Shown here piece by piece: positions 5,478 to 32,334 of a stretch of 64,000 bases of DNA. The position numbers and the translations under genes are program-made. The notes below the pieces were generated by a model, which saw only the letters and a list, made by a program, of their open reading frames with translations, ran no database searches and had not been told where the DNA came from. This DNA comes from a virus. Lineage: Duplodnaviria > Caudoviricetes. The DNA is taken from positions 32,001 to 96,000 of the IMG/VR virus record IMGVR_UViG_3300021399_000106; one strand, 5' to 3'. Every line of letters starts with the position of its first letter. The first letter of the stretch is position 1.

Positions 5478-5553
5478 TGCGGGGTGGAGCAGTTGGTAGC
5501 TTGCAGGGCTCATAACCCTGAGGCCGTCGGTTCGAGTCCGGCCCCCGCGACCA
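5478..5553 (+). tRNA. tRNA-fMet (CAT)
   Basis: Cloverleaf, GGG/CCC anticodon stem, CCA end. Confidence 0.93.
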
Positions 5554-5583
5554 TGTAAAATAAATTAATTTTGTTAAATAAAT

Positions 5584-5691
5584 GATTGAATATGCAATTA
5601 TAAAAAGCAGCCGTTCTGTAACCACGGTGCCTATACAGTATACTAGTTAATTAAAAGGCTTTGCAGGTGTAATTCCTGTCTTCAATCACCA
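5584..5691 (+). ncRNA. Atypical tRNA-like gene (GTA in enlarged loop, long variable arm)
   Basis: GATTGAA/TTCAATC acceptor + ACCA, T arm GCAGG-TGTAATT-CCTGT. Confidence 0.5.
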
Positions 5692-5813
5692 GGTTACGGT
5701 TTTAAGGACATAAACAAGCCACGGTTAGGAATGTCCTTTTTATTTTATAAAATATATAATTTTTTATATACTAATATTGTATATTTAAATATAAAATATA
5801 ATAGAAAGGAATT

Positions 5814-6125
5814 ATGTTTATGAATACATTGTTTGATGTTTATATGTTACAAGCAAAATTATACCATTGACTTGATGGAGAATATTATAATGTAGCAGTT
5901 GAAAATTATTTAGAAATAGAAAAAGCTGAATTAGAATATGACGATGAAAGAGCAACATTAAGTAATGTTAAATTTCATATTCGTTGAGGTAGATTCTATG
6001 ATAATAAAGAAAAAGAATATTTGAATGAAGAACATAAAACTATTATAGATATTGATATTAAATATTTAGAAAATTATGATTATATTTTAGGAATTTTTAC
6101 TGAATATGCTAAAAAGATAGGATAA
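5814..6125 (+). CDS. Hypothetical protein (2 in-frame TGA=Trp)
   Basis: GAAAGGA RBS; 103 aa when TGA is read through. Confidence 0.65.
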
Positions 6126-6183
6126 TATATTGTATAATATAAAGTAATTATTTCCCGGAGTGAGATTCTCCGTTGATATAGAT

Positions 6184-6259
6184 ACCGGCGTAGCTCAACT
6201 GGTAGAGTCGCGGTCTTCAAAACCGTTGGTTGTGGGTTCGAGTCCTACCGCCGGTACCA
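6184..6259 (+). tRNA. tRNA-Trp (TCA), opal-decoding
   Basis: Cloverleaf, loop CTTCAAA, short variable arm (not Sec), CCA end, upstream of trpS. Confidence 0.92.
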
Positions 6260-6328
6260 GTCAGTATAATGGTTTATGGATTCATTTCTATAAACCATTT
6301 TTATTTTATATAGGAAAGGAATTAAATT

Positions 6329-7315
6329 ATGCAAAGAATGATAAGTGGTATTAAACCAACAGGAAAAGTAACGTTAGGAAATTATATTGGTGCAATAAAA
6401 CAATTTATAAAATATCAAGATGATTATGATTTATGGGTTTTTATAGCGGATTTGCACGCATTAACACTTCCTATAAGCCAAAAGGAGTTACTCGAAAATA
6501 CGGAGAATTTAGCGGCGATTTATATAGCTGCTGGATTAGATCCTAAAAAGGTAACTTTATTTAAACAATCTAGTATTGTTGGACCTACAGAATTAAGTTG
6601 GTTACTAACTTGTAATACTGTTTTAGGTGAATTAACTAAAATGCCACAATATAAAAATTATTGTGAAAATCATAAAGGTGAAGGTGTTCCAACTGGTATG
6701 TTAATGTATCCTTCCTTAATGAGTGCCGATATATTATTATATGATGCTGATTATGTTCCAGTAGGGGAAGATCAAAAATCGCATGTTGATTTATGTAGAG
6801 ATATGGCTGAAAAGTTTAATAAAAGATATCCTGATAGTTTTAAATTACCTGAAACTATATTAGCTAAACAAGGTGCCAAAATAATGAGTTTATCAAATCC
6901 TACAAAGAAAATGAGTAAATCAGAATCTGATAAAGGAACAATTTATATTTTAGATGATATAGAAATATCTAAGAAAAAAATTATGAAAGCTTTAACTGAT
7001 AGTGAAGATAAAGTATATTATGATCCAATTAATAAACCAGGAATTTCAAATCTATTAACAATTTATAGCTGTTTAAGTGGAGAAGATATTAAAGTAATTG
7101 AAGATAGATATAAAGATGCTATTAATTATGGTATATTTAAGAAAGATTTATGTACATTATTAGAAAAGGAATTATTACCTATTCAAGAAAAAGTTAGAAA
7201 GTTAAAAGAAAGTGGAGATTTGGATTTAATATTATTTAATGGCTCATTATCTGCACAATCAGCTGCAAAAAGAAAAATTACAGAAATTTATAAAAAAGTT
7301 GGTTTATTAGATTAA
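6329..7315 (+). CDS. trpS: Tryptophanyl-tRNA synthetase
   Basis: SGIKPTG-TLGNYIGA, ADLHALT, VPVGEDQ and KMSKS motifs. Confidence 0.97.
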   Translation: MQRMISGIKPTGKVTLGNYIGAIKQFIKYQDDYDLWVFIADLHALTLPISQKELLENTENLAAIYIAAGLDPKKVTLFKQSSIVGPTELSWLLTCNTVLGELTKMPQYKNYCENHKGEGVPTGMLMYPSLMSADILLYDADYVPVGEDQKSHVDLCRDMAEKFNKRYPDSFKLPETILAKQGAKIMSLSNPTKKMSKSESDKGTIYILDDIEISKKKIMKALTDSEDKVYYDPINKPGISNLLTIYSCLSGEDIKVIEDRYKDAINYGIFKKDLCTLLEKELLPIQEKVRKLKESGDLDLILFNGSLSAQSAAKRKITEIYKKVGLLD

Positions 7316-7531
7316 AATTAATTGTATAATATATTGTTAAAAATTAATAAATATTTAGTTAGATTCAAAGAAAATTATAATTTTATAAAAAAAGTTATTT
7401 TAGGTATTGATTTTTAGAAAAAAATATTGTATAATATATATGTAAAATAAAAATAATTAATTTTAGTAAAAACAGAGAAATTTGTTGTACTAAATTAGTT
7501 AAATAAAAAATTTGTTAAGGAGAACACAGTT

Positions 7532-7699
7532 ATGAAAACATTATTAAGTCTAATAAAATTACATAATCTTAATAGTCAATATCCGTTACAATCATACTGT
7601 GATTACTCTGAACAAATTACAGACAACGCTGTATTCACAAATAAACCATTTGGGTATGAAGCGAGAGAAAATAGCACACGAGGTTTTCCTAGAAGTTAA
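7532..7699 (+). CDS. Small ORF (55 aa) heading the tRNA array
   Basis: AAGGAG RBS, open frame, followed by terminator. Confidence 0.5.
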   Translation: MKTLLSLIKLHNLNSQYPLQSYCDYSEQITDNAVFTNKPFGYEARENSTRGFPRS

Positions 7700-7725
7700 C
7701 TGAAACTAATCTTTTAAAATAATTT

Positions 7726-7756
7726 AAGGACTAGCAAAGTTAGCTAGTCCTTTTTT
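7726..7756 (+). terminator. Intrinsic terminator
   Basis: AAGGACTAGC/GCTAGTCCTT hairpin + T tract. Confidence 0.8.
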
Positions 7757-7771
7757 ATTTGTTATTTATAT

Positions 7772-7847
7772 AGGTCTTTAGTTTAATAGGTAAAATGATA
7801 GTCTCCAAAACTATAAGATGTGAGTTCGAATCTTACAGGGCCTGCCA
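7772..7847 (+). tRNA. tRNA-Trp (CCA)
   Basis: Cloverleaf, loop CTCCAAA, G73, CCA. Confidence 0.92.
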
Positions 7848-7864
7848 TAAAATTAAATATAATA

Positions 7865-7964
7865 AAGACAGTTACAGCAATTCTAAATGCTAGACAAATG
7901 GATAAGTCAATTTCCTGCTAAGAAATCATTTTGGGTTCAAATCCCAAGCAAATAAAACTGTCTT
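7865..7964 (+). ncRNA. Handle RNA 1 carrying a tRNA(GCT)-like body
   Basis: AAGACAGTT-ACAGCAA...AACTGTCTT; D arm, loop CTGCTAA and T arm inside; no CCA. Confidence 0.75.
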
Positions 7965-7970
7965 GTATAT

Positions 7971-8046
7971 GGGGCATTAGCTCAGCTGGGAGAGCGTCTG
8001 TTTTGCACGCAGAAGGTCACCGGTTCGATCCCGGTACGCTCCACCA
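7971..8046 (+). tRNA. tRNA-Ala (TGC)
   Basis: Cloverleaf, CCA. Confidence 0.93.
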
Positions 8047-8203
8047 TATAGATTGTACCTGTTACTATAGAACAGTTATGATAAATATAAAGCGTTCATT
8101 TGATAAATGAAAGAAAGATAAAGTGGTGATTTATCTCCTTCCGATATACTGGTGGGATAGCTTATAAGCTAGTGTTAAGCCTAGGACAATTAACACTTAA
8201 AAT

Positions 8204-8279
<76 letters not shown>

Positions 8280-8302
8280 TAAAAATAAATATTTAAGATA
8301 TA

Positions 8303-8419
8303 AAGACTCATACTGCAATTATTCCATTCTAGGATTTTTAGCTCATTTGGTAGAGCGTCAAACTTGTAATTTGAAAGTAGCAGGTTCAAGTCCTGCAGAA
8401 TCTATGATAAACGAGTCTT
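8303..8419 (+). ncRNA. Handle RNA 2 carrying a tRNA-Thr(TGT)-like body
   Basis: AAGACTC-ATACTGCAA...GAGTCTT; cloverleaf at about 8331-8403 without CCA. Confidence 0.78.
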
Positions 8420-8425
8420 GTAAAT

Positions 8426-8502
8426 GGACATGTAGCTCAGTTGGTTAGAGCTCCCCGCTCATAACGGGGCGGTCCTAGGTTCGAGACCTAGCTTGTCCAC
8501 CA
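8426..8502 (+). tRNA. tRNA-Ile2/Met (CAT)
   Basis: Cloverleaf; GGAC acceptor resembles Firmicute Ile2. Confidence 0.88.
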
Positions 8503-8509
8503 GTTAAAT

Positions 8510-8585
8510 CGCCCCATCGACAAGCGGCCTAAGTCATTGGACTTTCTATCCAACATCGCCGGTTCGAATCCGGCTGGGGTGACCA
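8510..8585 (+). tRNA. tRNA-Glu (TTC)
   Basis: Cloverleaf, loop CTTTCTA (T37). Confidence 0.85.
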
Positions 8586-8589
8586 TAAT

Positions 8590-8667
8590 CGTCGCGTAGT
8601 GGAATTGGTTAACACACTTGCCTCTCAAGCAAGAGATTTACGAGTTCAAATCTCGTCGCGTCGACCA
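8590..8667 (+). tRNA. tRNA-Glu (CTC)
   Basis: Cloverleaf, loop CTCTCAA. Confidence 0.85.
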
Positions 8668-8672
8668 TAATT

Positions 8673-8748
8673 GTTCCCATAGGCTAATGGACTAGACCAC
8701 TAGGCTACGAACCTAGTAATGAGGGTTCGAATCCTTCTGGGAATGCCA
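8673..8748 (+). tRNA. tRNA-Arg (ACG)
   Basis: Cloverleaf, CCA. Confidence 0.92.
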
Positions 8749-8759
8749 TTTAAATATAT

Positions 8760-8836
8760 TGGCTGTTAGCTCAATTGGTTAGAGCATCGGACTGTTAATC
8801 CGGGGGTTGAGAGTTCAAGTCTCTCACAGCCAGCCA
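8760..8836 (+). tRNA. tRNA-Asn (GTT)
   Basis: Cloverleaf, CCA. Confidence 0.93.
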
Positions 8837-8838
8837 AT

Positions 8839-8913
8839 GCAGGTATAGTATAAAGGTTAGTATTTCAGTCTTCCAAACTGAGGATACGGTTTCGAGATCC
8901 GTTACCTGCTCCA
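8839..8913 (+). tRNA. tRNA-Gly (TCC)
   Basis: Cloverleaf, U73, CCA. Confidence 0.88.
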
Positions 8914-8986
8914 TAAAATTCTAAAGAAAGAGGTAATCGCTATGGAATCTGATTATAGCTATTATTACAACTTAATAATTAAATTT

Positions 8987-9071
8987 CGTGGCGTAGTTCG
9001 TTAAAGAGGCGAGGAAGTCCGTAAAACTTTCATCTTAGATCCGCTGAGAGCATTACTCAGAGCCACGACCA
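8987..9071 (+). ncRNA. Atypical tRNA-like gene (loop CCGTAAA)
   Basis: CGTGGC/GCCACG acceptor + ACCA; non-canonical T loop AGCATTA. Confidence 0.55.
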
Positions 9072-9075
9072 ATAT

Positions 9076-9165
9076 GGGTATGAGGCTACTGTCGGTTGCG
9101 TGGCGGCAGACTGTAAATCTGTTACATTGGAAACGTCGTAGGTTCGACTCCTACCATACCCACCA
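9076..9165 (+). tRNA. tRNA-Tyr (GTA)
   Basis: Loop CTGTAAA, long variable arm, CCA. Confidence 0.88.
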
Positions 9166-9168
9166 AAT

Positions 9169-9245
9169 GGACGCTTAGCTCAGCTGGGAGTAGCGCTTGC
9201 CTTACAAGCAAGAGGTCACAGGTTCGATCCCTGTAGCGTCCACCA
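9169..9245 (+). tRNA. tRNA-Val (TAC)
   Basis: Cloverleaf, CCA. Confidence 0.93.
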
Positions 9246-9330
9246 GCCGATTTTAAGACATAATTGCTTAAAGGTTGTTTGCCAGACTTTAGTAGTAACG
9301 GCATCGAATAAAAACTGGCATTTAATATTT

Positions 9331-9407
9331 CGGGATTTAGCTCAGCTTGGTAGAGCGCTTGGTTTGGGACCAAGATGTCGTAGGTTCGAATCCTATAATC
9401 CCGACCA
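9331..9407 (+). tRNA. tRNA-Pro (TGG)
   Basis: Cloverleaf, CCA. Confidence 0.95.
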
Positions 9408-9448
9408 AATAAGTTGTGGGTATAATAAGACTTGAAACCCTCATAAGT

Positions 9449-9524
9449 GGCCCGTTAGTTCAGCGGTTTAGAATCTTCGGCTGTCTCCCGAGGGACACGA
9501 GTTCGAATCTCGTACGGGTCGCCA
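9449..9524 (+). tRNA. tRNA-Asp (GTC)
   Basis: Cloverleaf, loop CTGTCTC (T37). Confidence 0.9.
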
Positions 9525-9528
9525 TAAT

Positions 9529-9621
9529 GGTCAGTTGGCAGAGTCTGGTTTATTGCACTGGTCTTGAAAACCAGCGACGGTGATGAGCCGTCCGTGGGTT
9601 CAAATCCTACACTGACCGCCA
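9529..9621 (+). tRNA. tRNA-Ser (TGA)
   Basis: Cloverleaf, long variable arm. Confidence 0.93.
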
Positions 9622-9639
9622 TTAATTAAAATTATATAT

Positions 9640-9768
9640 GCTCACGTTATAGTCACATCAATTTATGGATGGTTGCAAACTGAAATAAGGAGATGAGGAT
9701 GAATCTTGGAGATGGCCACCGAGATGAACGCAATACGGTATTAGGTGCAATTCCTTTTGTGGGTACCA
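9640..9768 (+). ncRNA. Atypical 129-nt tRNA-like gene
   Basis: GCTCACG/TGTGGGT acceptor + ACCA, T-arm-like AGGTGCAATTCCT; interior does not fit a cloverleaf. Confidence 0.45.
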
Positions 9769-9773
9769 TATAT

Positions 9774-9850
9774 CCAATAGTAGCTCAGTTGGTTAGAGCA
9801 CTCGGCTGATAACCGAGAGGTCGATTGTTCAAATCAATCCTATTGGACCA
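9774..9850 (+). tRNA. tRNA-Ile (GAT)
   Basis: Cloverleaf, CCA. Confidence 0.92.
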
Positions 9851-9856
9851 TAATAT

Positions 9857-9943
9857 GCTCCGGTGGTGGAACTGGTATACACGTTGGACTTAAAATCCAA
9901 TGCCTTTACAGGATTGAGGGTTCAAATCCCTCTCGGAGCACCA
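9857..9943 (+). tRNA. tRNA-Leu (TAA)
   Basis: Cloverleaf, long variable arm. Confidence 0.94.
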
Positions 9944-9952
9944 AATATAAAT

Positions 9953-10029
9953 GCTCGAGTTAGTTCAGTTGGTAGAACATCTGATTGTGGCTCAGAGGGT
10001 CAAGGGTTCGAGTCCCTTACTTGAGCCCA
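9953..10029 (+). tRNA. tRNA-His (GTG)
   Basis: Cloverleaf with G-1:C73. Confidence 0.93.
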
Positions 10030-10121
10030 TATAAAATATTAGAAAAAGGAGAACGACGTATATGAAACGAAAATGTAGATGTCGAAAGTGTTGTAGGAAA
10101 CAATTTAATAGATTTTTATAT

Positions 10122-10197
10122 GCGCCGTTAGCTTAACTGGTAGAGCTCTGGTCTCTTAAACCTGAGGTTATAGGTTCAAATCCTATACGGCGCACCA
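10122..10197 (+). tRNA. tRNA-Lys (CTT)
   Basis: Cloverleaf, loop CTCTTAA. Confidence 0.88.
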
Positions 10198-10203
10198 ATA
10201 GAT

Positions 10204-10279
10204 GTGCCTGTAGCTCAGATGGTAGAGCACTTGACTTTTAATCAAGGGGTCACGAGTTCGAACCTCGTCGGGCACACCA
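10204..10279 (+). tRNA. tRNA-Lys (TTT)
   Basis: Cloverleaf, loop CTTTTAA. Confidence 0.95.
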
Positions 10280-10284
10280 TGAAT

Positions 10285-10361
10285 GTGCCGTTAGCTCATT
10301 CGGATAGAGCAACCGCCTTCTAAGCGGTAGGTGATAGGTTCGAGTCCTATACGGCACGCCA
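10285..10361 (+). tRNA. tRNA-Arg (TCT)
   Basis: Cloverleaf, CCA. Confidence 0.94.
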
Positions 10362-10370
10362 TTATTTAAT

Positions 10371-10444
10371 GCGTCCGTAGCCAAGTGGTAAGGCAGGAGG
10401 CCGCAACCCTCTGATCACTGGTTCAAATCCAGTCGGATGCTCCA
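10371..10444 (+). tRNA. tRNA-Cys (GCA)
   Basis: Cloverleaf, U73; loop CCGCAAC (C33). Confidence 0.88.
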
Positions 10445-10448
10445 TTAT

Positions 10449-10525
10449 CTCCTAATAACCCAATCGGAAGAGGTAGTAAGCTCAAACCTTACAAAGTATT
10501 GGTTCAAATCCAATTTAGGAGACCA
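10449..10525 (+). tRNA. tRNA (CAA), Leu anticodon without long variable arm
   Basis: CTCCTAA/TTAGGAG acceptor, loop CTCAAAC, CCA. Confidence 0.75.
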
Positions 10526-10554
10526 TATATTGTATAATATTTAGATATAAAGTT

Positions 10555-10629
10555 GCCGCTTTAGTATAAAATCTATTACGATTGAATGGTAATCAATTGA
10601 AGGCGGAGAGTTACCGTCAAGCGGCACCA
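10555..10629 (+). tRNA. tRNA-Thr (GGT), atypical T loop
   Basis: Loop ATGGTAA; T loop AGAGTTA. Confidence 0.75.
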
Positions 10630-10635
10630 TTAAAT

Positions 10636-10711
10636 GCCACTCTAGCTCAGTAGGTAGAGCGTTGGCCTGAAGAGCCAAGCGTGGTAGGTTCGATTCCTAC
10701 GGGTGGCGCCA
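10636..10711 (+). tRNA. tRNA-Phe (GAA)
   Basis: Cloverleaf, CCA. Confidence 0.92.
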
Positions 10712-10714
10712 AAT

Positions 10715-10789
10715 GCGTGAGTAGTATAATGGTTAGTATATGTCCTTGCCAAGGATAAGGTGCGGGTTCAATTCCCGTCTCGCGCTCCA
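10715..10789 (+). tRNA. tRNA-Gly (GCC)
   Basis: Cloverleaf, CCA. Confidence 0.92.
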
Positions 10790-10816
10790 GAGTAGATTTG
10801 AAAGGAAGTAATTATT

Positions 10817-11233
10817 ATGAGTTTATATACTAGAGTATATGAAGATTTTATTAAAGCAAGAAAAGATAAAAATGAAGTAAATAAAAATATTTTAGGTTTA
10901 TTATATAATGCTTTAAAAAACAAAGCAATTGAATTAAGAGTTGATGAATTAACTGATGCTGATTCTAGTTCTGTAATTAAGAAAGTTTCTAAACAATTAG
11001 ATGAAGAAATTGAATGCAATGTAAAGGTTAATAGAACTGAAAAAGCAAATGAATTAACTTATCAAAAGAATTTAATTCAAGACTACTTACCAAAACAATT
11101 AAGTGAAGATGAAATTAAGACTATATTAAATACTCTAGAAGATAAAGCTATTCCTTCAGTAATGAAGTATTTTAAGACTAATTATAATGGTCTAGTAGAT
11201 ATGAGCTTAGTTAGTAAGCTCGCTAGACAATAA
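10817..11233 (+). CDS. GatB/YqeY domain protein
   Basis: YLPKQLSEDEI motif, size, tRNA-array context. Confidence 0.88.
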   Translation: MSLYTRVYEDFIKARKDKNEVNKNILGLLYNALKNKAIELRVDELTDADSSSVIKKVSKQLDEEIECNVKVNRTEKANELTYQKNLIQDYLPKQLSEDEIKTILNTLEDKAIPSVMKYFKTNYNGLVDMSLVSKLARQ

Positions 11234-11235
11234 TT

Positions 11236-11310
11236 GCCAGTTTAGCTCAGAGGAAGAGCAAACCGCTCATATCGGTTAGGTCGAGATATCGTAATTCTCA
11301 GCTGGTACCA
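11236..11310 (+). tRNA. tRNA-Met (CAT), atypical T loop
   Basis: Loop CTCATAT, CCA. Confidence 0.8.
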
Positions 11311-11315
11311 TATAT

Positions 11316-11400
11316 GCCGGTGTGGTGGAATTGGTAGACACCCTAGTCTTAGAAACTAGTGCTGAAAGGCGTGAGGGTTCAAGTCCCTCCACCGGTACCA
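11316..11400 (+). tRNA. tRNA-Leu (TAG)
   Basis: Cloverleaf, long variable arm. Confidence 0.94.
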
Positions 11401-11555
11401 TTTGATTATTCATTTATTAATAGTAAGCGCGGTAGTATTATTAATAAATTTATAATAGTTGCCATTTAGAAAAATGGAGCGTATGACACTGATTGCAAGG
11501 TGTGTAACGACTGATGAAATGTGGAGCCGACAGTATAAAAAAACTCCAACCATAT

Positions 11556-11630
11556 AGGACCGTAGCCAAGTGGTAAGGCAAGGGACTTTGACTCCCTCAT
11601 TCGAAGGTTCGAACCCTTCCGGTCCTGCCA
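11556..11630 (+). tRNA. tRNA-Gln (TTG)
   Basis: Cloverleaf, CCA. Confidence 0.94.
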
Positions 11631-11634
11631 AAAT

Positions 11635-11725
11635 GGTTGCTTACTCAAGAGGTCGAAGAGGGTGCACTGCTAACGCATTAGGAGTTTAATCGCTCGCGGG
11701 GGTTCAAATCCCTCAGCAACCGCCA
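11635..11725 (+). tRNA. tRNA-Ser (GCT)
   Basis: Cloverleaf, long variable arm. Confidence 0.92.
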
Positions 11726-11744
11726 TTTGAAAGGAATAATGTTT

Positions 11745-12284
11745 ATGAAAGATTTAGTAAAGGCTAGTAAGTATATTGCACTACTATTAAGGCATAAACC
11801 GGAAGAAGGAGATTTAAATCTCGACAAAGAAGGTTATTGTCCAACTGTTGATTTAATAAGAGCCTTAAAAAGAAAATTTAATTGGTTTACATTAAATGAT
11901 TTGTATGATATTGTAAATTCAGACGAAAAAGGTAGATATTCATTTAATGATAATAAAACCAAAATTAGGGCAAATCAAGGTCATTCAACAAATCAAGTAA
12001 ATATAACATTTAAAGAAGTAACACCTCCTGATATTTTATATCATGGAACAGCAACTAGATTTTTAAATGATATTTATAGAGAAGGTTTAAAACCGATGTC
12101 TAGACAATATGTTCATTTAAGTAAAGATATTGAAACTGCAACGAAAGTTGGTAGTAGACACGGAAATCTATATATTTTAGAAATTGATTGTAAGAAAATG
12201 GTTGAAGATGGATATAAATTTTATATTTCAGAAAACAATGTTTACTTAACAAAATTAGTTCCTAGAAAATATTTTAAAAATTAA
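11745..12284 (+). CDS. kptA: RNA 2'-phosphotransferase (Tpt1/KptA)
   Basis: LLRHKP, IRANQGHS, LYHGT, RQYVHLS and NNVYLT motifs. Confidence 0.95.
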   Translation: MKDLVKASKYIALLLRHKPEEGDLNLDKEGYCPTVDLIRALKRKFNWFTLNDLYDIVNSDEKGRYSFNDNKTKIRANQGHSTNQVNITFKEVTPPDILYHGTATRFLNDIYREGLKPMSRQYVHLSKDIETATKVGSRHGNLYILEIDCKKMVEDGYKFYISENNVYLTKLVPRKYFKN

Positions 12285-12313
12285 TTAAAAAATATAATAT
12301 TTTGGTAAAAGAT

Positions 12314-12325
12314 ATTGTATATATA
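12314..12325 (+). promoter_or_regulatory. Example of the recurrent ATTGTATAW promoter motif
   Basis: Same motif precedes about 20 transcription units in the window. Confidence 0.6.
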
Positions 12326-12347
12326 ATATGTAAAATAAAAATTTAAG

Positions 12348-12408
12348 AGACACAGACAGCAAACAATTAATGCAATCAACTTTTAATTGATCAGGCAAAA
12401 ACGTGTCT
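12348..12408 (+). ncRNA. Handle RNA 3 carrying only a Lys(TTT) anticodon arm, in the leader of the DUF2828 gene
   Basis: AGACAC-AGACAGCAA...GTGTCT enclosing ATCAA-CTTTTAA-TTGAT. Confidence 0.75.
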
Positions 12409-12425
12409 AGAAAGGAAGATTAATT

Positions 12426-14057
12426 ATGGATTTTTATGGAACAATGCAAAAGGTACAAAATAATGTATCAGTAACTGAAAATGGTATGGAAGGATACAAG
12501 ACAACTTTCCACCCATTACTAGATATGAATTTCAAGGTAACTTCATATCGTAAGCTTACAGATAGAGATATCTGTAATGATATTGACCAAATAATTTCTC
12601 AAGCAGAGGATGCTCAATATCTATTAAAATTCTTATTTATGGTAAGAGATGTTAGAGATGGTTTAGGAGAAAGAAGATTATTTAGAGTTGCATTAAAGCA
12701 TCTATTAAATACTGCTAATTTCGATAATAAGACTGAAATAATTTCAGACTTAATTAAAACTCAAATTTCTAATTTTGGTAGATTTGATGACTTATTTATT
12801 TTCGTAGGTACCCCTTATGAAAATATCTTAATTAAAACAATTAAGAATCAATTAAAGTCAGACTATGAGAATATGTTAGCTAATAAGAGCATTTCATTAT
12901 TAGCTAAGTGGATGCCATCTGAAAATGCTTCTTCAAAGGAAACTAAGAAGTTAGCAACAGCAATTAGAAAGGCATTAAATGCAGATTCTAAGACTTATAG
13001 AAAAACTTTATCAGCATTAAGAGCATATTTAAAGGTAACTGAAACTTATACTTCAGCTAATGAATGGGATAAGATTGATTATAATCAAGTTCCTTCTAAG
13101 GCAAACTTAAAGTATAAGGATGCATTCTTAAAGCATGATGAGGAAAGACGTAGAGATTACTTAGCTGCATTAAGAGTTGGTGTTGATAAGGAAGGTAATA
13201 AGGTTAAGATTAATTCTTCAGTTAACTTCCCACATGAAATTGTTGCTAAGTATACTAAGAAAAGCTACTGGAGCTTACAATTATCTGAATATGATGAAGC
13301 ATTAGAACAATTATGGAAGAATTTAAAGCAAAAAGATGGTTTAAATAACACAATCGTTGTTAGAGATGGTTCTGGTTCAATGACTTCAACAATTGGTAAT
13401 GGCGATACAACTGCATTAGATGTTTCAACAGCATTAGCAATTTATTGTTCAGAACATTTAAATTCAGGATTTAAGGATAAATTCTTAACATTCTCAAGTA
13501 GAGCTAAGTTAATTGATTTAAGTGCTGAAACTAATTTACATAACAAATTAAATAAGGTATTTAAAGAGGATGATTGCTCAAATACAAACATTGAAGATGT
13601 ATTCGATGTAATTTTAAATACAGCTGTTAATGGTAATGTTGCACCTGAGGATATGCCAGCACAAGTATTAATTATTTCAGATATGGAATTTGATGGTGCT
13701 TATGGTGGAAATAGATTCAATGGTACAAGCAACGTATTCAAGAAAGCAGCTACTAAGTATGCCAATGCAGGTTACAAGTTACCTAAATTAGTATTCTGGA
13801 ATGTATGCTCTAGAACAAATACTATCCCAGTAACACAAAATGAAAATGGTGTAGTATTAGTATCAGGATTCTCAGTTAATACCTTAAATATGGTATTAAA
13901 TGGAAAGACTTCACCTTGGTTATCATTAGTAGATGAATTAACTACAGAAAAGTATAATTCAATTCCATTATTAGCTAATGTAGTGAAGGCTAATGTAAAG
14001 GTAAATACTACTAAGAGAACCTCTAAGTCAAATAAGACACCTGATTTCTTAAAGTAA
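12426..14057 (+). CDS. DUF2828-family helical + vWA protein (Ro60/TROVE-like architecture)
   Basis: TENG, RDVRDGLGER, AKWMPSE, MIDAS DGSGSM, ISDMEFD, VFWN and VSGFS motifs. Confidence 0.85.
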   Translation: MDFYGTMQKVQNNVSVTENGMEGYKTTFHPLLDMNFKVTSYRKLTDRDICNDIDQIISQAEDAQYLLKFLFMVRDVRDGLGERRLFRVALKHLLNTANFDNKTEIISDLIKTQISNFGRFDDLFIFVGTPYENILIKTIKNQLKSDYENMLANKSISLLAKWMPSENASSKETKKLATAIRKALNADSKTYRKTLSALRAYLKVTETYTSANEWDKIDYNQVPSKANLKYKDAFLKHDEERRRDYLAALRVGVDKEGNKVKINSSVNFPHEIVAKYTKKSYWSLQLSEYDEALEQLWKNLKQKDGLNNTIVVRDGSGSMTSTIGNGDTTALDVSTALAIYCSEHLNSGFKDKFLTFSSRAKLIDLSAETNLHNKLNKVFKEDDCSNTNIEDVFDVILNTAVNGNVAPEDMPAQVLIISDMEFDGAYGGNRFNGTSNVFKKAATKYANAGYKLPKLVFWNVCSRTNTIPVTQNENGVVLVSGFSVNTLNMVLNGKTSPWLSLVDELTTEKYNSIPLLANVVKANVKVNTTKRTSKSNKTPDFLK

Positions 14058-14069
14058 AAAAATAAATAA

Positions 14070-14229
14070 AAGACACATACAGCGATATTTATATCATGCT
14101 TGAGGAGCCGCCGATGGAGGTATGAAATCCTCCCTTCCCGACCAAGAGCTATTAAGTTTAATTATTTAATAGTTGTTGCTCGGGAAGTAGCTTAATATTC
14201 ATAGAGCAGCGATTGATAAAACGTGTCTT
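14070..14229 (+). ncRNA. Handle RNA 4: circularly permuted tRNA-Pro-like
   Basis: AAGACAC-ATACAGCGA...GTGTCTT; T arm + CTTCCCG-ACCA precedes CGGGAAG + D arm. Confidence 0.8.
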
Positions 14230-14255
14230 GTTGACTTAAAAATAAATAACGGTAA

Positions 14256-14395
14256 AAGACATTTACTGCAATTCTAACGATTATCACATGTCAAGTGAGT
14301 GACGGTGGTTCGATTCCATCCTCCCCTGCCATTTATTATAATATATAGGGGAGTAGTTCAGTGGTAGAATGCTAAAAAATCAACCAAAATGTCTT
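14256..14395 (+). ncRNA. Handle RNA 5: circularly permuted tRNA-Asp(GTC)
   Basis: AAGACATTT-ACTGCAA...AAATGTCTT; anticodon arm, T arm, CTCCCCT-GCCA, linker, AGGGGAG + D arm. Confidence 0.85.
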
Positions 14396-14440
14396 GATTA
14401 CCTTTAAAATATAAATTTAATATAACATATATAAATAGAT

Positions 14441-14572
14441 TAGACACATACAGCAACTTTTAATCTTTTAGATTACTATAGGTTCAAATCCTATCTCAGC
14501 AACATTGCTAAGTGGCGAAAATGGTATACGCAAACTACTTAAAATAGTTATAATGAAAAAGAAACGTGTCTA
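14441..14572 (+). ncRNA. Handle RNA 6: circularly permuted tRNA-Leu(TAA)
   Basis: TAGACAC-ATACAGCAA...GTGTCTA; variable arm, T arm, loop-closed acceptor, D arm, anticodon arm. Confidence 0.83.
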
Positions 14573-14585
14573 GAAATTAAAATAG

Positions 14586-14617
14586 ATTGGTATTTTACTA
14601 GTAATACCAATTTTTTT
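14586..14617 (+). terminator. Intrinsic terminator after handle RNAs 4-6
   Basis: ATTGGTATT/AATACCAAT hairpin + T tract. Confidence 0.7.
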
Positions 14618-14647
14618 ATTGTATAATTTAATAGAAGAGGTGATATT

Positions 14648-14875
14648 ATGTTATTTTTAGAAACAAGTTCAGAATCTATGACATTATTTACAGCTTTAGT
14701 AATTGTGTTAGTAATAGCATTAGGAATAGTTGTATTATTAATTACATTAAAAACTAATCGATTATTTCCTTTTCATAAAATGCATAAAGAAGATGAAGAT
14801 AATTGTTATGATATGAATCTAAGAAAATCAAGTTCAGTAAAAAAGGATGAAAGAGGAAATAAATGGAAACATTAG
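14648..14875 (+). CDS. Small membrane protein
   Basis: GAGGTG RBS, one transmembrane segment. Confidence 0.6.
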   Translation: MLFLETSSESMTLFTALVIVLVIALGIVVLLITLKTNRLFPFHKMHKEDEDNCYDMNLRKSSSVKKDERGNKWKH

Positions 14876-18487: not shown

Positions 18488-18577
18488 TAGTTACACACAG
18501 CAATTTAATAATACAAATACATGAACAACATTTATATCATTGTTTGGATACGAAAGTAATTAGTAGGTTCGTAACTA
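18488..18577 (+). ncRNA. Handle RNA 7 (no clear tRNA cargo)
   Basis: TAGTTAC-ACACAGCAA...GTAACTA. Confidence 0.65.
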
Positions 18578-18710: not shown

Positions 18711-18794
18711 AGTCGCATACAGCAAAATAAAAAATCTTTTAAAAAGAAGACAAATAATACAATCAAAAAAATTATTTTGATAGTTATGGCGACT
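18711..18794 (+). ncRNA. Handle RNA 8 (AT-rich cargo)
   Basis: AGTCGC-ATACAGCAA...GCGACT. Confidence 0.65.
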
Positions 18795-18993
18795 GTGAAT
18801 GCCTATATATAAAAGACAATAGCGAAAGCGACTAGTAAATTTAAAGCATTGTTTAGTAGTATATAAGACTAGATCAGTCCTAAAATTTAATACCAATGTG
18901 CATAAGCACCTCAGTTATGTTATCATTGATATCAAATTAATTGGAAACAGGATTCCAAAATATGATATTATAATTAAAAGGAGAATTAGAAAT

Positions 18994-20062: not shown

Positions 20063-21193
20063 ATGGAATTAGCGTTATTAAAATTTATAAAAGAACATGA
20101 AAATTGGGAAGAATTATTAACTAGAGACCCATATAACCTAAAAATAAATAGAGATGGTAAATATATTATATTTAAATATAATCAATTATGTTCTGATTTT
20201 AATTTACCAGAAGTTCAAGAAGCCCGAGGTATAATTTTTAGAGAATCAGATTGGAAGTGTGTTTGTCACGCCTTCAATAAGTTTGGAAATTATGGTGAAT
20301 CATATTGCCCTGAAATAGATTGGTCAACTGCATCTGTTCAAGAAAAAGTTGATGGTTCATTAATGAAAGTTTGGTATGATGAATATTGGCATATATCAAC
20401 TAATGGTACTATAGATGCTTTTAAAGCACCATTAGAATGTGCTAATAAAGAAATAACTTCTTATGGAGAACTATTCTTATATTGTTTAAAAGAAAATAAA
20501 CCTTCATTTCCATTTCAAGATTTTATTTCATTTTTAGATAAAGAATATTGTTTTATGTTTGAAATGGTATCACCTTATAATAGGGTTGTTATTGAGTACC
20601 TTGAATCTAAGTTATATTATTTAGGATGTAGAAATATGAGCACTCATCAAGAGTATGGTTTTGCAGATTATTTTCATATTCCATTTGTTAATGGTTTGGG
20701 TAATATATTAAATATGCCAAAACTATATCCATTACATACCTTAAAAGAAGTTCAAGAAGCAGCAAATGCCTTACCTTGGAATGAAGAAGGTTATGTAGTA
20801 TGTGATGCTAATTTCAATAGAGTTAAGATTAAATCTCCAGAATATGTTTTAGCGCATCACGGAAGAACTAATGGTAATATTTCTATTTCAAGATTATTAG
20901 AAATAATTTTAAATAATGAGATAGATGAATTCTTAATTTATGCAGATGAATATAAAGATAAAATAAATAATTTAATTGCTGAAATGGAATTATTTAAAAC
21001 TCAAGTTAAATTAGAAATTATAAATCTAGCTCCAGCAAATTATACTTCAAGAAAAGAATATGCAGAAGTAGTTAAGAGATACCCAGCATATATGCAATAT
21101 TTCTTATTTAGATATAAAACTATTAATGAAGAATTTAAGAAAATAAATATTTCTGGTTGGAAAAAGATATTAAGTGCGAGAGGCATTATTTAA
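20063..21193 (+). CDS. T4 Rnl1-like RNA ligase
   Basis: EARGIIF, FNKFGN, EKVDGSL, FEMVSPYN, EEGYVV and RVKIKS motifs. Confidence 0.9.
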   Translation: MELALLKFIKEHENWEELLTRDPYNLKINRDGKYIIFKYNQLCSDFNLPEVQEARGIIFRESDWKCVCHAFNKFGNYGESYCPEIDWSTASVQEKVDGSLMKVWYDEYWHISTNGTIDAFKAPLECANKEITSYGELFLYCLKENKPSFPFQDFISFLDKEYCFMFEMVSPYNRVVIEYLESKLYYLGCRNMSTHQEYGFADYFHIPFVNGLGNILNMPKLYPLHTLKEVQEAANALPWNEEGYVVCDANFNRVKIKSPEYVLAHHGRTNGNISISRLLEIILNNEIDEFLIYADEYKDKINNLIAEMELFKTQVKLEIINLAPANYTSRKEYAEVVKRYPAYMQYFLFRYKTINEEFKKINISGWKKILSARGII

Positions 21194-22809: not shown

Positions 22810-23835
22810 ATGATAAAATTTATAATGTTAATTGGTTTACCAGGAAGTGGTAAATCTACCTACGCAAACAAATTAATAGATAATAATACCGTATGGTTAT
22901 CTTCTGATAAAATAAGAGAAGAAATTTATGGAACTGAAGAGGAACAAAAAAATCCAGCATTAGTTTTCTCAATTATGTTTGATAGAACAGTTGAAAATCT
23001 AAATAATAATAAGAATGTTATTTATGATGCTACAAATATTAATAGAAAACTTAGAAAAGATTTATTAGATAGATTAAAAAGAAAAGTAAATAATGTCTAT
23101 TATGAATGTGTGCTAGTATATACAAACTTAGAAGAATGTAAGAAAAGAAATTCAAAAAGAGATAGAAAAGTTCCTGAATCTATAATTGATAAAATGGTTA
23201 AAAATTTTGAAGTTCCTGTTAAAGGAGAAGGTTGGGATAATATTGAAGTTAATTATACAACTAAACCATCAGTACCTTATGATAAAGTTATTGATATTTT
23301 TGTAAGTAAAGAGCCTCATGATAATCCTCATCATAATATGGATATTGATTTACATATGTATGCTGCTTGGGATTATTATGTAACACATTATGAATATGGT
23401 ATAGATAATTATTTAAAATATGCCATCTTATTTCATGATATAGGTAAGAAATTCTGTAAAACATATTATAATAGAAGGAATGAATTATGTGAAAAGGCAC
23501 ATTATTACCAACATGCAAATGCTGGAGCATATTTCGCTTTTGATATAGATTTTTCTAATTATAATGACCCTTATTTTGATGGAATATATCAAGATAAAGA
23601 ATTTACAGAAAATGATAAATACAATATGATAATATTAATTAACTATCATATGAGACCTCTAGAAGCTTGGAAGGATTCTAAAAAATCTGAAAATAAAGAT
23701 AAACTAATTTTAGGTGATAAATTATTTAATTATCTTGAAATATTACATGATTGTGATAAGAATTCTGAAGAGGATGAAAAGTTTGTTAAATGGTTTCTTG
23801 AAAAAATGGTTAAGGTATATAGAGGTGAAAACTAA
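22810..23835 (+). CDS. Polynucleotide kinase (AAA_33) fused to HD phosphohydrolase
   Basis: GLPGSGKST, YDATN; HDNPHH...FHDIGK...YHM...HDCD. Confidence 0.88.
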   Translation: MIKFIMLIGLPGSGKSTYANKLIDNNTVWLSSDKIREEIYGTEEEQKNPALVFSIMFDRTVENLNNNKNVIYDATNINRKLRKDLLDRLKRKVNNVYYECVLVYTNLEECKKRNSKRDRKVPESIIDKMVKNFEVPVKGEGWDNIEVNYTTKPSVPYDKVIDIFVSKEPHDNPHHNMDIDLHMYAAWDYYVTHYEYGIDNYLKYAILFHDIGKKFCKTYYNRRNELCEKAHYYQHANAGAYFAFDIDFSNYNDPYFDGIYQDKEFTENDKYNMIILINYHMRPLEAWKDSKKSENKDKLILGDKLFNYLEILHDCDKNSEEDEKFVKWFLEKMVKVYRGEN

Positions 23836-31351: not shown

Positions 31352-32334
31352 TGAATAACTATATTGAAGTTAAACGTAGACGTATATATACTCCTTTATG
31401 GGATATTATTATGGATATTAAAAGACAACTTCATAATGGTAAACTTAGAGAAGTTAGAACACCTAAGGATAATAATATTAGAGTAACATGTCCACATCAT
31501 AAAAATGGCTTAGAATCTGATCCAGATTGCAATATTTATATTGGTCCTGATATGAAAGATGCGTCAGGTAATCTTATTGTAGCTTATGGAACAGCTAACT
31601 GTTTTGCTTGTGATTTTAAAGGTGATTTTGTAAAATTTGTAGCAGAATGTTTTGACAAAAGTTATGAATGAGCAGCAGATTGGCTTATCGATAATTACTA
31701 TACTGGATCTTATGTTGAAGATATTGAGCTAGAACCTATTATATTAGCTAAATCTAAAAGACAATATCTTCCAGAATCAATTCTAAATGAATTTGAAGAT
31801 TTTCATCCATATATGTTACAAAGAAAATTAACAAAAGATGTAATTAAAGAATTTGAAATAAAGTATGATCCAAAAACAGAATGTTTAGTATTTCCTGTTA
31901 GAGATGAAAAAGGTAAATTGTGAATGCTAACAAGGCGTTCTGTTAAGGATAAAAAATTCATAATAGATAAAGAGAAACAGAAACCTGTATATTTATTATA
32001 TTATTTACAACAACATGATATAAAAGAAGCTTATGTTACAGAAAGTCAAATAAATGCATTAACTCTATGAACCCATCAACTTCCAGGTATTGCATTATTT
32101 GGTACAGGAAGTGAATATCAATATGATATCTTAAATAAATCAGGCATTAGAGTATATAATTTAATGTTTGATGGAGATGCAGCTGGAGATAAAGGCATTA
32201 GAGAATTTTTAAGTCACATTAGAAAAGATGTTATTGTAAATATTATTAACATGCCAAGAGGAAAAGATGTTAATGAATTAAGTTATGATGATGTAGAAAA
32301 TTTAATTTCTACACAAATGAAAGTAAAATTTTAA
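31351..32334 (+). CDS. DNA primase (Zn-binding + TOPRIM; 3 in-frame TGA)
   Basis: CPHH...CFAC, VTESQINAL, FDGDAAG, KDVNE. Confidence 0.9.

Follow-up and report, generated by a model that had tools for sequence, protein, structure and literature searches.

The window analysed here is a 64,000-nucleotide stretch (positions 32,001 to 96,000 of the IMG/VR virus record IMGVR_UViG_3300021399_000106) of a phage represented by a single, AT-rich contig of 166,546 bp. TGA encodes Trp in this phage, and many of its open reading frames are open only under translation table 4. A tRNA array at 5478-11725 gave 32 ARAGORN calls, 31 of them confirmed by Rfam and 30 canonical, the latter including a tRNA-Leu(UAA) at 9857-9943 (ARAGORN). 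CCA is encoded in all 30 canonical tRNAs of the window, as read from the three bases past the end of the Rfam tRNA match. Besides the array, the window carries genes for NAPRTase, an NMNAT-like protein, TrpRS, YqeY, a KptA/Tpt1 RNA 2′-phosphotransferase (11727-12284, + strand; Pfam PF01885, E 5.8e-48; PHROG 5470) and, with the KptA/Tpt1 gene directly upstream, a Ro-like protein (12426-14057, + strand); an ATP-dependent DNA ligase, an Rnl1-like RNA ligase and a PNK-like kinase are also encoded in the neighbourhood. The whole looks like an island for tRNA supply and repair, and agrees with published work in which the ROT/TROVE proteins of jumbo phages, together with tRNA-like partners, are seen as platforms for RNA repair (PMC7824862). 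Within it, at 6184-7315, a tRNA(UCA) (SeC in ARAGORN) lies just 5′ of the gene for the class-I Trp/Tyr-type synthetase (TrpRS), and the two look like the phage's own opal-recoding kit. The NAPRTase gene and a cytidylyltransferase-like (NMNAT-type) gene at 32-1840, near the NAD-using KptA, suggest phage NAD+ salvage. The T4 Rnl1-like RNA ligase and the PNK-like kinase (AAA_33/KTI12), at 20063-21193 and 22810-23835, would be the classic pair for repair of tRNA anticodon breaks.

The Ro-like gene is followed by three tandem permuted RNAs, the third of which, at 14441-14572 on the + strand and 385 nt downstream of the gene, is the element studied here. The unconstrained minimum free energy (MFE) fold of 14438-14576 recovers all six of its helices, and each arm proposed by a sequence-only reading of the locus was found where that reading had placed it. 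The two ends of the element pair with each other in a clamp, in which the 5′ strand UAGACAC-A-U (14441-14449) faces the 3′ strand A-C-GUGUCUA (14564-14572, followed by G), giving a continuous helix of 7-9 bp with one A.C mismatch and a core at 14441-14447/14566-14572. Next to the clamp is the heptamer ACAGCAA (14450-14456), which is unpaired in the MFE fold and conserved. The chain then runs through a variable-arm hairpin (14461-14475), which belongs to the class-II tRNA module and is conserved in orthologs, and a T arm (14478-14494; ATAGG/UUCAAAU/CCUAU) that is 100% paired in 7 orthologs, with 3/5 of its pairs changed on both sides. It continues into an acceptor hairpin (14495-14512) of 7 bp with a conserved C.A mismatch, a loop of ACAU and no CCA, then through U8-G9 and a Leu-type D arm (14513-14531, the D arm itself at 14515-14531; GCG/AAAAUGGUAUA/CGC), and ends with an anticodon arm (14533-14549; AACTA/CTTAAAA/TAGTT) whose loop, CUUAAAA, presents the Leu anticodon UAA (MFE, ARAGORN). 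The 3′ half of a tRNA is thus encoded upstream of its 5′ half. That the acceptor is closed as a hairpin, as had been proposed, holds in the MFE fold; the 8 bp and 2-nt loop originally drawn for it are sterically impossible, and give way to 7 bp with a 4-nt loop.

When the halves were re-joined in the standard order, ARAGORN called a tRNA-Leu(taa) with a normal cloverleaf, including the G18-G19 and UUC T-loop elements, in 36/36 junction variants and in 399 further variants, and 0/2000 dinucleotide shuffles gave any tRNA call, bearing out the earlier claim of a permuted class-II tRNA-Leu(UAA). In its D, anticodon and T loops the element is almost the same as the canonical tRNA-Leu(UAA) at 9857-9943, the D loops being nearly identical, and all of the stems differ. 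In genomic order, 14441-14572 gave no ARAGORN call and no Rfam call at gathering thresholds (whole window). The Rfam tRNA model RF00005 matched the T arm alone in this order (positions 46-63), weakly, at 13.9 bits, and E-value scans of 12250-14700, 12335-12420 and 14430-14585 gave no meaningful Rfam match to the element or to its terminal structure. With an acceptor that lacks both CCA and a 3′ end, the element probably cannot be aminoacylated; the earlier suggestion that it stays uncharged is supported, indirectly, by the contrast with the 30/30 canonical tRNAs and by the orthologs described below. Cleavage of the 7-bp acceptor by RNase P is possible.

The clamp and the adjoining heptamer define a recurrent structure, here termed the handle: an AG-N4 stem, 2 nt, AC(A/U)GC(A/G)A, a cargo, the complementary N4 and then CU(U/A)G. 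The element at 14441-14572 fits this definition on the strand of the nearby Ro-like gene, and its ends (AGACAC..ACAGCAA / GUGUCU-AG) recur at 7866, 8304, 12348, 14071, 14257, 18489 and 18711, giving 8 handle RNAs in the phage, all on the + strand. Their stems vary with pairing kept (AC/GU, AG/CU, UC/GA, AU/AU, UUAC/GUAA, UCGC/GCGA), and their cargo comprises three permuted tRNA-like bodies with three breakpoints, two tRNA-like bodies in normal order, one bare anticodon stem-loop and two non-tRNA sequences. The two permuted siblings are a tRNA-like RNA at 14071-14228 (+ strand; fold z -5.27), which is opened at the anticodon stem and carries CCA and a hairpin linker, and a tRNA-Asp(GUC)-like RNA at 14257-14394 (+ strand; by its fold), whose break falls between the D arm and the anticodon arm. 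The breakpoint of the element, just 3′ of the anticodon arm, is thus unlike those of its neighbours, as the sequence-only reading had maintained. Part of the second sibling gave weak Rfam matches to YrlA (14300-14370; 21.6 bits against a gathering score of 69) and to tmRNA models (14304-14355). Rotation of the other permuted handle RNAs gave ARAGORN calls that were scattered and junction-dependent, so completeness as tRNAs is not claimed for them.

In the handle RNA at 12348-12408 (+ strand) the cargo is limited to an anticodon stem-loop of Lys(UUU) type, and the 3′ strand of this RNA directly adjoins the ribosome binding site of the Ro-like gene. The normal-order bodies lie within the tRNA array, at 7866-7963 (+ strand; Ser-gct in ARAGORN, below the Rfam tRNA threshold) and at 8304-8418 (+ strand; tRNA-Thr(UGU)-like by ARAGORN and Rfam, no CCA). 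These handles enclose the sole two non-canonical ARAGORN calls of the array, 7884-7955, which fails Rfam, and 8332-8404, which lacks CCA, and both calls are probably mimics and not tRNA genes. The remaining two RNAs, recognised by the handle pattern, are at 18489-18576 (+ strand; non-tRNA cargo) and 18711-18833 (+ strand; 3′ partner at 18789-18794 or 18828-18833). An 11-mer, ATTTATATCAT, is common to the cargo of 14071-14228 and 18489-18576, which are otherwise unrelated.

A sequence box, TGTATAAT, occurs 21 times in the window against 10.9 expected, 19 times on the + strand and twice on the - strand, often just 5′ of genes, and is probably the -10 box of the phage promoter. There is no such box within 12285-14619, the next being at 14620-14627. 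Downstream of the element, a terminator-like hairpin with a U run (14584-14617, + strand) ends the unit formed by the Ro-like gene and the three RNAs; the hairpin, folded separately as 14584-14613, has a free energy of -11.6 kcal/mol (z -3.65, with 0/200 shuffles as good). Over 12200-14700 a consensus promoter and terminator scan gave no terminator call, three G-C pairs being required by its rule. Given the absence of a box upstream and the hairpin and U run after the element, it is therefore probable that the element is co-transcribed with the Ro-like mRNA and its sibling RNAs, and then excised.

Orthologs of the element were compared for pairing and for the presence of each arm. Across 7 orthologs, 90.9% of the cells are paired, compared with 28-45% for slid partners, and 15 pairs are changed on both sides. 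In L099 the variable-arm stem is kept and its loop is different. The parts needed for decoding and charging are not conserved: the acceptor loops of the orthologs (GCAUU, GCAUG, ACCCG, GCAU) have no CCA, base 73 is A in the element and G in most orthologs, and the anticodon arm is absent from five lineages (L011/L012/L013/L098; L097; L099; L001/L014/L015/L100; L081), in which the D arm runs directly into the 3′ linker. Two further lineages do have the arm. In L101 its stem is ATTGA/TCAAT, with both sides changed in 3/5 pairs, and the loop is again CUUAAAA; in L102 the stem is that of 14441-14572 and the loop, CUUAUAAA, has 8 nt. An ortholog-specific pattern scan found one viral and two metagenome contigs.

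The anticodon arm had been described as retained. It is present in the phage, and its retention is less certain than this word suggests: it occurs in 3/8 lineages, which are not sisters on the protein tree, where the group of the window and P0002 has the arm-less L097/L011 as its sister, and L101 falls in a separate clade (the arm tally was made without the contigs of P0002, which is too short, P0003, at 89% identity, and P0004). The presence of the arm in this separate clade speaks against a single late insertion, and the arm is then either ancestral with repeated loss or exchanged between phages. It may be dispensable, since five lineages are without it and one has an 8-nt loop.

Other handle RNAs seem to exchange the anticodon while their scaffold stays constant. 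The normal-order RNA at 8304-8418 has counterparts at L011:10072-10185 and L001:8404-8518 that are near-identical apart from the anticodon, which is UGU (Thr) in the window, UUU (Lys) in L011 and UCU (Arg) in L001. The anticodon of 14257-14394 is GUC (Asp) here and in L011 and L101, GCA (Cys) in L014 and GAA (Phe) in L097. The handle RNA that precedes the Ro-like gene likewise has orthologs with an anticodon-type stem-loop only (L011:7922-7982, L102:2923-2983, L099:874-933 and L009:5928-5981), whose loops are of Lys(UUU) type in 12348-12408 and L099, Asn(GUU) type in L102 and L009, and Thr(GGU) type in L011; this RNA could serve in autoregulation or as another bait.

The product of the Ro-like gene is a 543-aa protein with DUF2828 and DUF7788/vWA domains, assigned to PHROG 850 ("RNA-binding protein"). 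Pfam matched DUF2828 and DUF7788 only, with no TROVE match, and neither phmmer with the single protein nor a profile of 67 sequences reached the Ro60 entries of the PDB. The evidence of kinship with Ro60 is therefore a predicted structure. An AlphaFold (AF2) model based on the 67-sequence alignment (pLDDT 87, pTM 0.87) has a HEAT-repeat ring and a vWA domain with a MIDAS site, whose residues, DxSxS included, are invariant in that alignment (D314, S316, S318, T387, D419). The best PDB matches of the model are Ro60 (Foldseek, 1yvr, E 9e-10), with Ro60 of phage phiLo and Rsr of D. radiodurans also matched, and in VIA-align the model superimposed on Ro60 with Z 19.0 over 420 residues (rmsd 4.0 Å), compared with Z 10-11 for vWA-only chains. 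The predicted structure shows here that the DUF2828 protein has a Ro60 fold. One search gave approximately 7900 homologues of the protein, in phages and gut bacteria. We found no literature linking DUF2828 to Ro60 or to handle RNAs.

The handle was looked for in 80 other viral contigs with a DUF2828 gene, encoding proteins approximately 45-74% identical to that of the phage. At least one handle on the strand of the gene was present in 77/80 of these loci, and the handles, 211 on the gene strand versus 2 on the opposite strand, cluster immediately before and after the DUF2828 gene. Their ends comprise 36 different covarying 6-bp stems, and for 142/204 distinct 5′ motifs a fully complementary 6-mer lies no more than 330 nt away, compared with 6.5% for base-permuted stems. 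Positions that the search did not impose are also conserved, namely the AA after ACNGC (A14 in 147/163 and A15 in 153/163 unique elements) and the G two bases past the 3′ CU (151/163), giving a conserved 3′ flank of CU-(U/A)-G. Many of these RNAs have the order of T arm, closed acceptor and D arm. Contigs from bacterial genomes with a DUF2828 gene gave 70 gene-strand handles versus 5. Handles also flank DUF2828 genes in the complete chromosomes of Clostridiales bacterium CCNA10 (L113) and Breznakiella homolactica (L173), and in contigs that binning assigned to Methanobrevibacter and Absconditabacterales (L123, L139); these four loci may be prophages or mis-binned phage contigs.

The closest working analogue of the element and the DUF2828 protein is Ro60 with YrlA, the latter being the Y RNAs bound by Ro60/Rsr in bacteria, with a tRNA-like domain in the order T arm, acceptor, D arm (Chen et al. 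2014, PMC4201824). The same order had been noted for the element, and its fold and orthologs confirm it, with the acceptor stem closed. As in YrlA, the element adjoins the gene for a ring and vWA protein with the predicted Ro60 fold, its ends pair into a stem, and several different RNAs are found per locus; systems of the YrlA type are carried by phages, an example being Thermus phage phiLo, which encodes Ro60 with Yrl1/Yrl2 (PMC12135203). The likeness does not extend to membership of the family. The YrlA model RF02553 had no match on 14430-14585 at E<=10 (gathering score 69 bits), and the terminal stem carries AGACAC..ACAGCAA and not the known Ro60-binding motif, GNCGAAN0-1G (PMC4201824). The putative partner is a DUF2828/DUF7788 protein, with a Ro60 fold in the predicted model (Z 19), and not a Pfam TROVE protein. 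Unlike YrlA, moreover, the element has its break between the anticodon stem and variable arm, and it has both a class-II variable arm and a complete Leu anticodon arm; a whole tRNA is therefore mimicked.

The handle itself has a counterpart in the Class I RNAs of dictyostelids, which are eukaryotic, 42-65 nt in length and reported to bind the RRM protein Rnp1A (Kjellin et al. 2021, PMC7919456). Comparison by eye of the Class I sequences from the supplement of that paper with the handle showed a similarly short, covarying end-joining stem, CCUUACAGCAA right after the 5′ strand, and variable cargo (PMC7919456). Class I RNAs start with AAG/G and end with 3′ C-UG(U), and the conserved G start and C-UG end are both present in the handle. 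The spacing from the conserved G to the motif is 9 nt in Class I RNAs and 7 nt in the phage handle, and, unlike the phage element, Class I RNAs are without tRNA-like cargo. Among the outgroup candidates in the same supplement, Arabidopsis ath_can_1 and a Capsaspora sequence have a terminal stem and (A/C)UUACAGCAA, and the paper draws no link to Ro60-like proteins (PMC7919456). The distribution of the handle may be much wider than has been described. Plants also encode DUF2828 proteins.

Permuted tRNA order is known from other systems, and the element differs from each of these in turn. Algal permuted tRNA genes mature via a bulge-helix-bulge cut and a circular intermediate to give working tRNAs; those of Cyanidioschyzon merolae, reportedly described by Soma and colleagues in 2007, are said to have the 3′ half upstream of the 5′ half with flanks that pair. 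The element shares this order and the paired flanks, but unlike the algal genes it has no bulge-helix-bulge, its 4-nt acceptor loop is without CCA, and most of its orthologs are arm-less. Two-piece (permuted) tmRNA genes also have a tRNA-like domain in permuted order; unlike these, the element has no tag reading frame and no free, chargeable acceptor end, and the Rfam E-value scan of 14430-14585 gave no tmRNA-model match. A literature search on permuted phage tRNAs and anticodon-nuclease decoys found no description of this system.

Taken with the fold of its neighbour's product, the element is probably a Y-RNA/YrlA-like, complete mimic of tRNA-Leu that is held by a Ro60-like protein, and not a working tRNA. 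It would be a non-coding RNA of approximately 130 nt from an uncatalogued Y-RNA-like family, made from the same transcription unit as the protein, with ends that pair into a clamp beside ACAGCAA, and this handle would be the docking site for the ring of the DUF2828 and vWA protein. The chain would enter at the variable arm, pass through the T arm, the capped acceptor and the D arm, and leave after the anticodon arm, so that the particle would display the elbow and anticodon loop of a tRNA-Leu look-alike. Such a module may serve as a bait or decoy for proteins that recognise tRNA, or may tether them; the candidates are tRNA nucleases of the host, those that cut anticodons among them, or the repair enzymes Rnl1, PNK and KptA of the phage itself. 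A function as decoy or scaffold, as put forward in the sequence-only reading, would fit a Ro60-fold gene lying 385 nt upstream and the way in which the handle follows that gene across phage loci.

The alternative that fares best would have the handle act as a processing or ligation handle, with a phage RNA ligase sealing the ends to give exonuclease-resistant circular tRNA mimics, or as a site for another protein. The clamp does juxtapose the 5′ and 3′ ends, in an island that also encodes KptA, a PNK-like kinase and a ligase of Rnl1 type, and a binder other than the DUF2828 protein is possible because the Dictyostelium RNAs with the same stem and ACAGCAA are reported to bind Rnp1A, an RRM protein (PMC7919456). 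We nevertheless consider a ligation handle or another binding site improbable overall, as the handle tracks the DUF2828 gene in 77/80 viral loci, flanking it, down to approximately 45% protein identity. A cis-acting or selfish element, that is, a 3′-UTR stabiliser or processing signal, or a miniature inverted repeat with captured tRNA fragments, would suit the position of the element in the 3′ region of the Ro-like unit, before the terminator-like hairpin, and the multiple copies with inverted-repeat ends. Unlike transposon termini, however, these ends keep pairing and not sequence (36 stems) and lie on one strand (211 versus 2), the internal tRNA helices covary and the single-stranded ACAGCAA is conserved, all of which makes such an element very improbable.

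A true circularly permuted tRNA-Leu gene would require that enzymes such as Rnl1, PNK and KptA of the phage cleave and re-join the ends brought together by the clamp, and that RNase P and 3′ trimming open the acceptor loop, with CCA then added to give a chargeable tRNA-Leu(UAA), as in Cyanidioschyzon merolae. All tRNA arms are present and the re-ordered sequence is accepted by ARAGORN, the genes for the three enzymes are nearby, and two siblings encode CCA and a linker. In M. smegmatis YrlA a 7-bp acceptor, as found here, lets RNase P cut, after which CCA is added in vivo (PMC4201824). We give this route very little credence: the acceptor loop has only 4 nt and no CCA, whereas CCA is encoded in 30/30 canonical tRNAs; base 73 is variable; the anticodon loop of L102 has 8 nt; five lineages lack the anticodon arm while the remainder covaries; the clamp is a continuous helix without a bulge-helix-bulge; and the phage already has a canonical tRNA-Leu(UAA). 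A decaying, functionless tRNA-Leu pseudogene scrambled by rearrangement would account for the AT-rich stems, the acceptor mismatch and the missing CCA, but is scarcely credible given compensatory changes that keep the helices in orthologs of eight lineages and T, D and anticodon loops that match those of the working tRNA-Leu(UAA) while all stems differ.

A broader idea can be put forward, tentatively and as a rather unlikely one: the protein and its handle RNAs may form a programmable bait platform that displays whole or partial tRNA look-alikes with anticodons swappable between close relatives. In it, a host nuclease attacking tRNA-Leu(UAA) would be titrated or reported by the Leu(UAA) copy, and the event coupled to repair by Rnl1, PNK and KptA. 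Were this so, the occurrence of the handle in Class I RNAs of amoebae would suggest a Ro-like RNP that is ancient and spans domains of life. Here the mimicry is complete, with elbow, variable arm and anticodon loop, on a different and very widespread family of Ro60-shaped proteins, which would give a putative RNA partner to DUF2828, a domain of unknown function. For annotators, the implication is that some entries listed as "tRNA genes" in the tRNA arrays of phages are probably mimics enclosed by a handle, and the change of cargo anticodon between close relatives offers a direct experimental handle on what these RNAs do.
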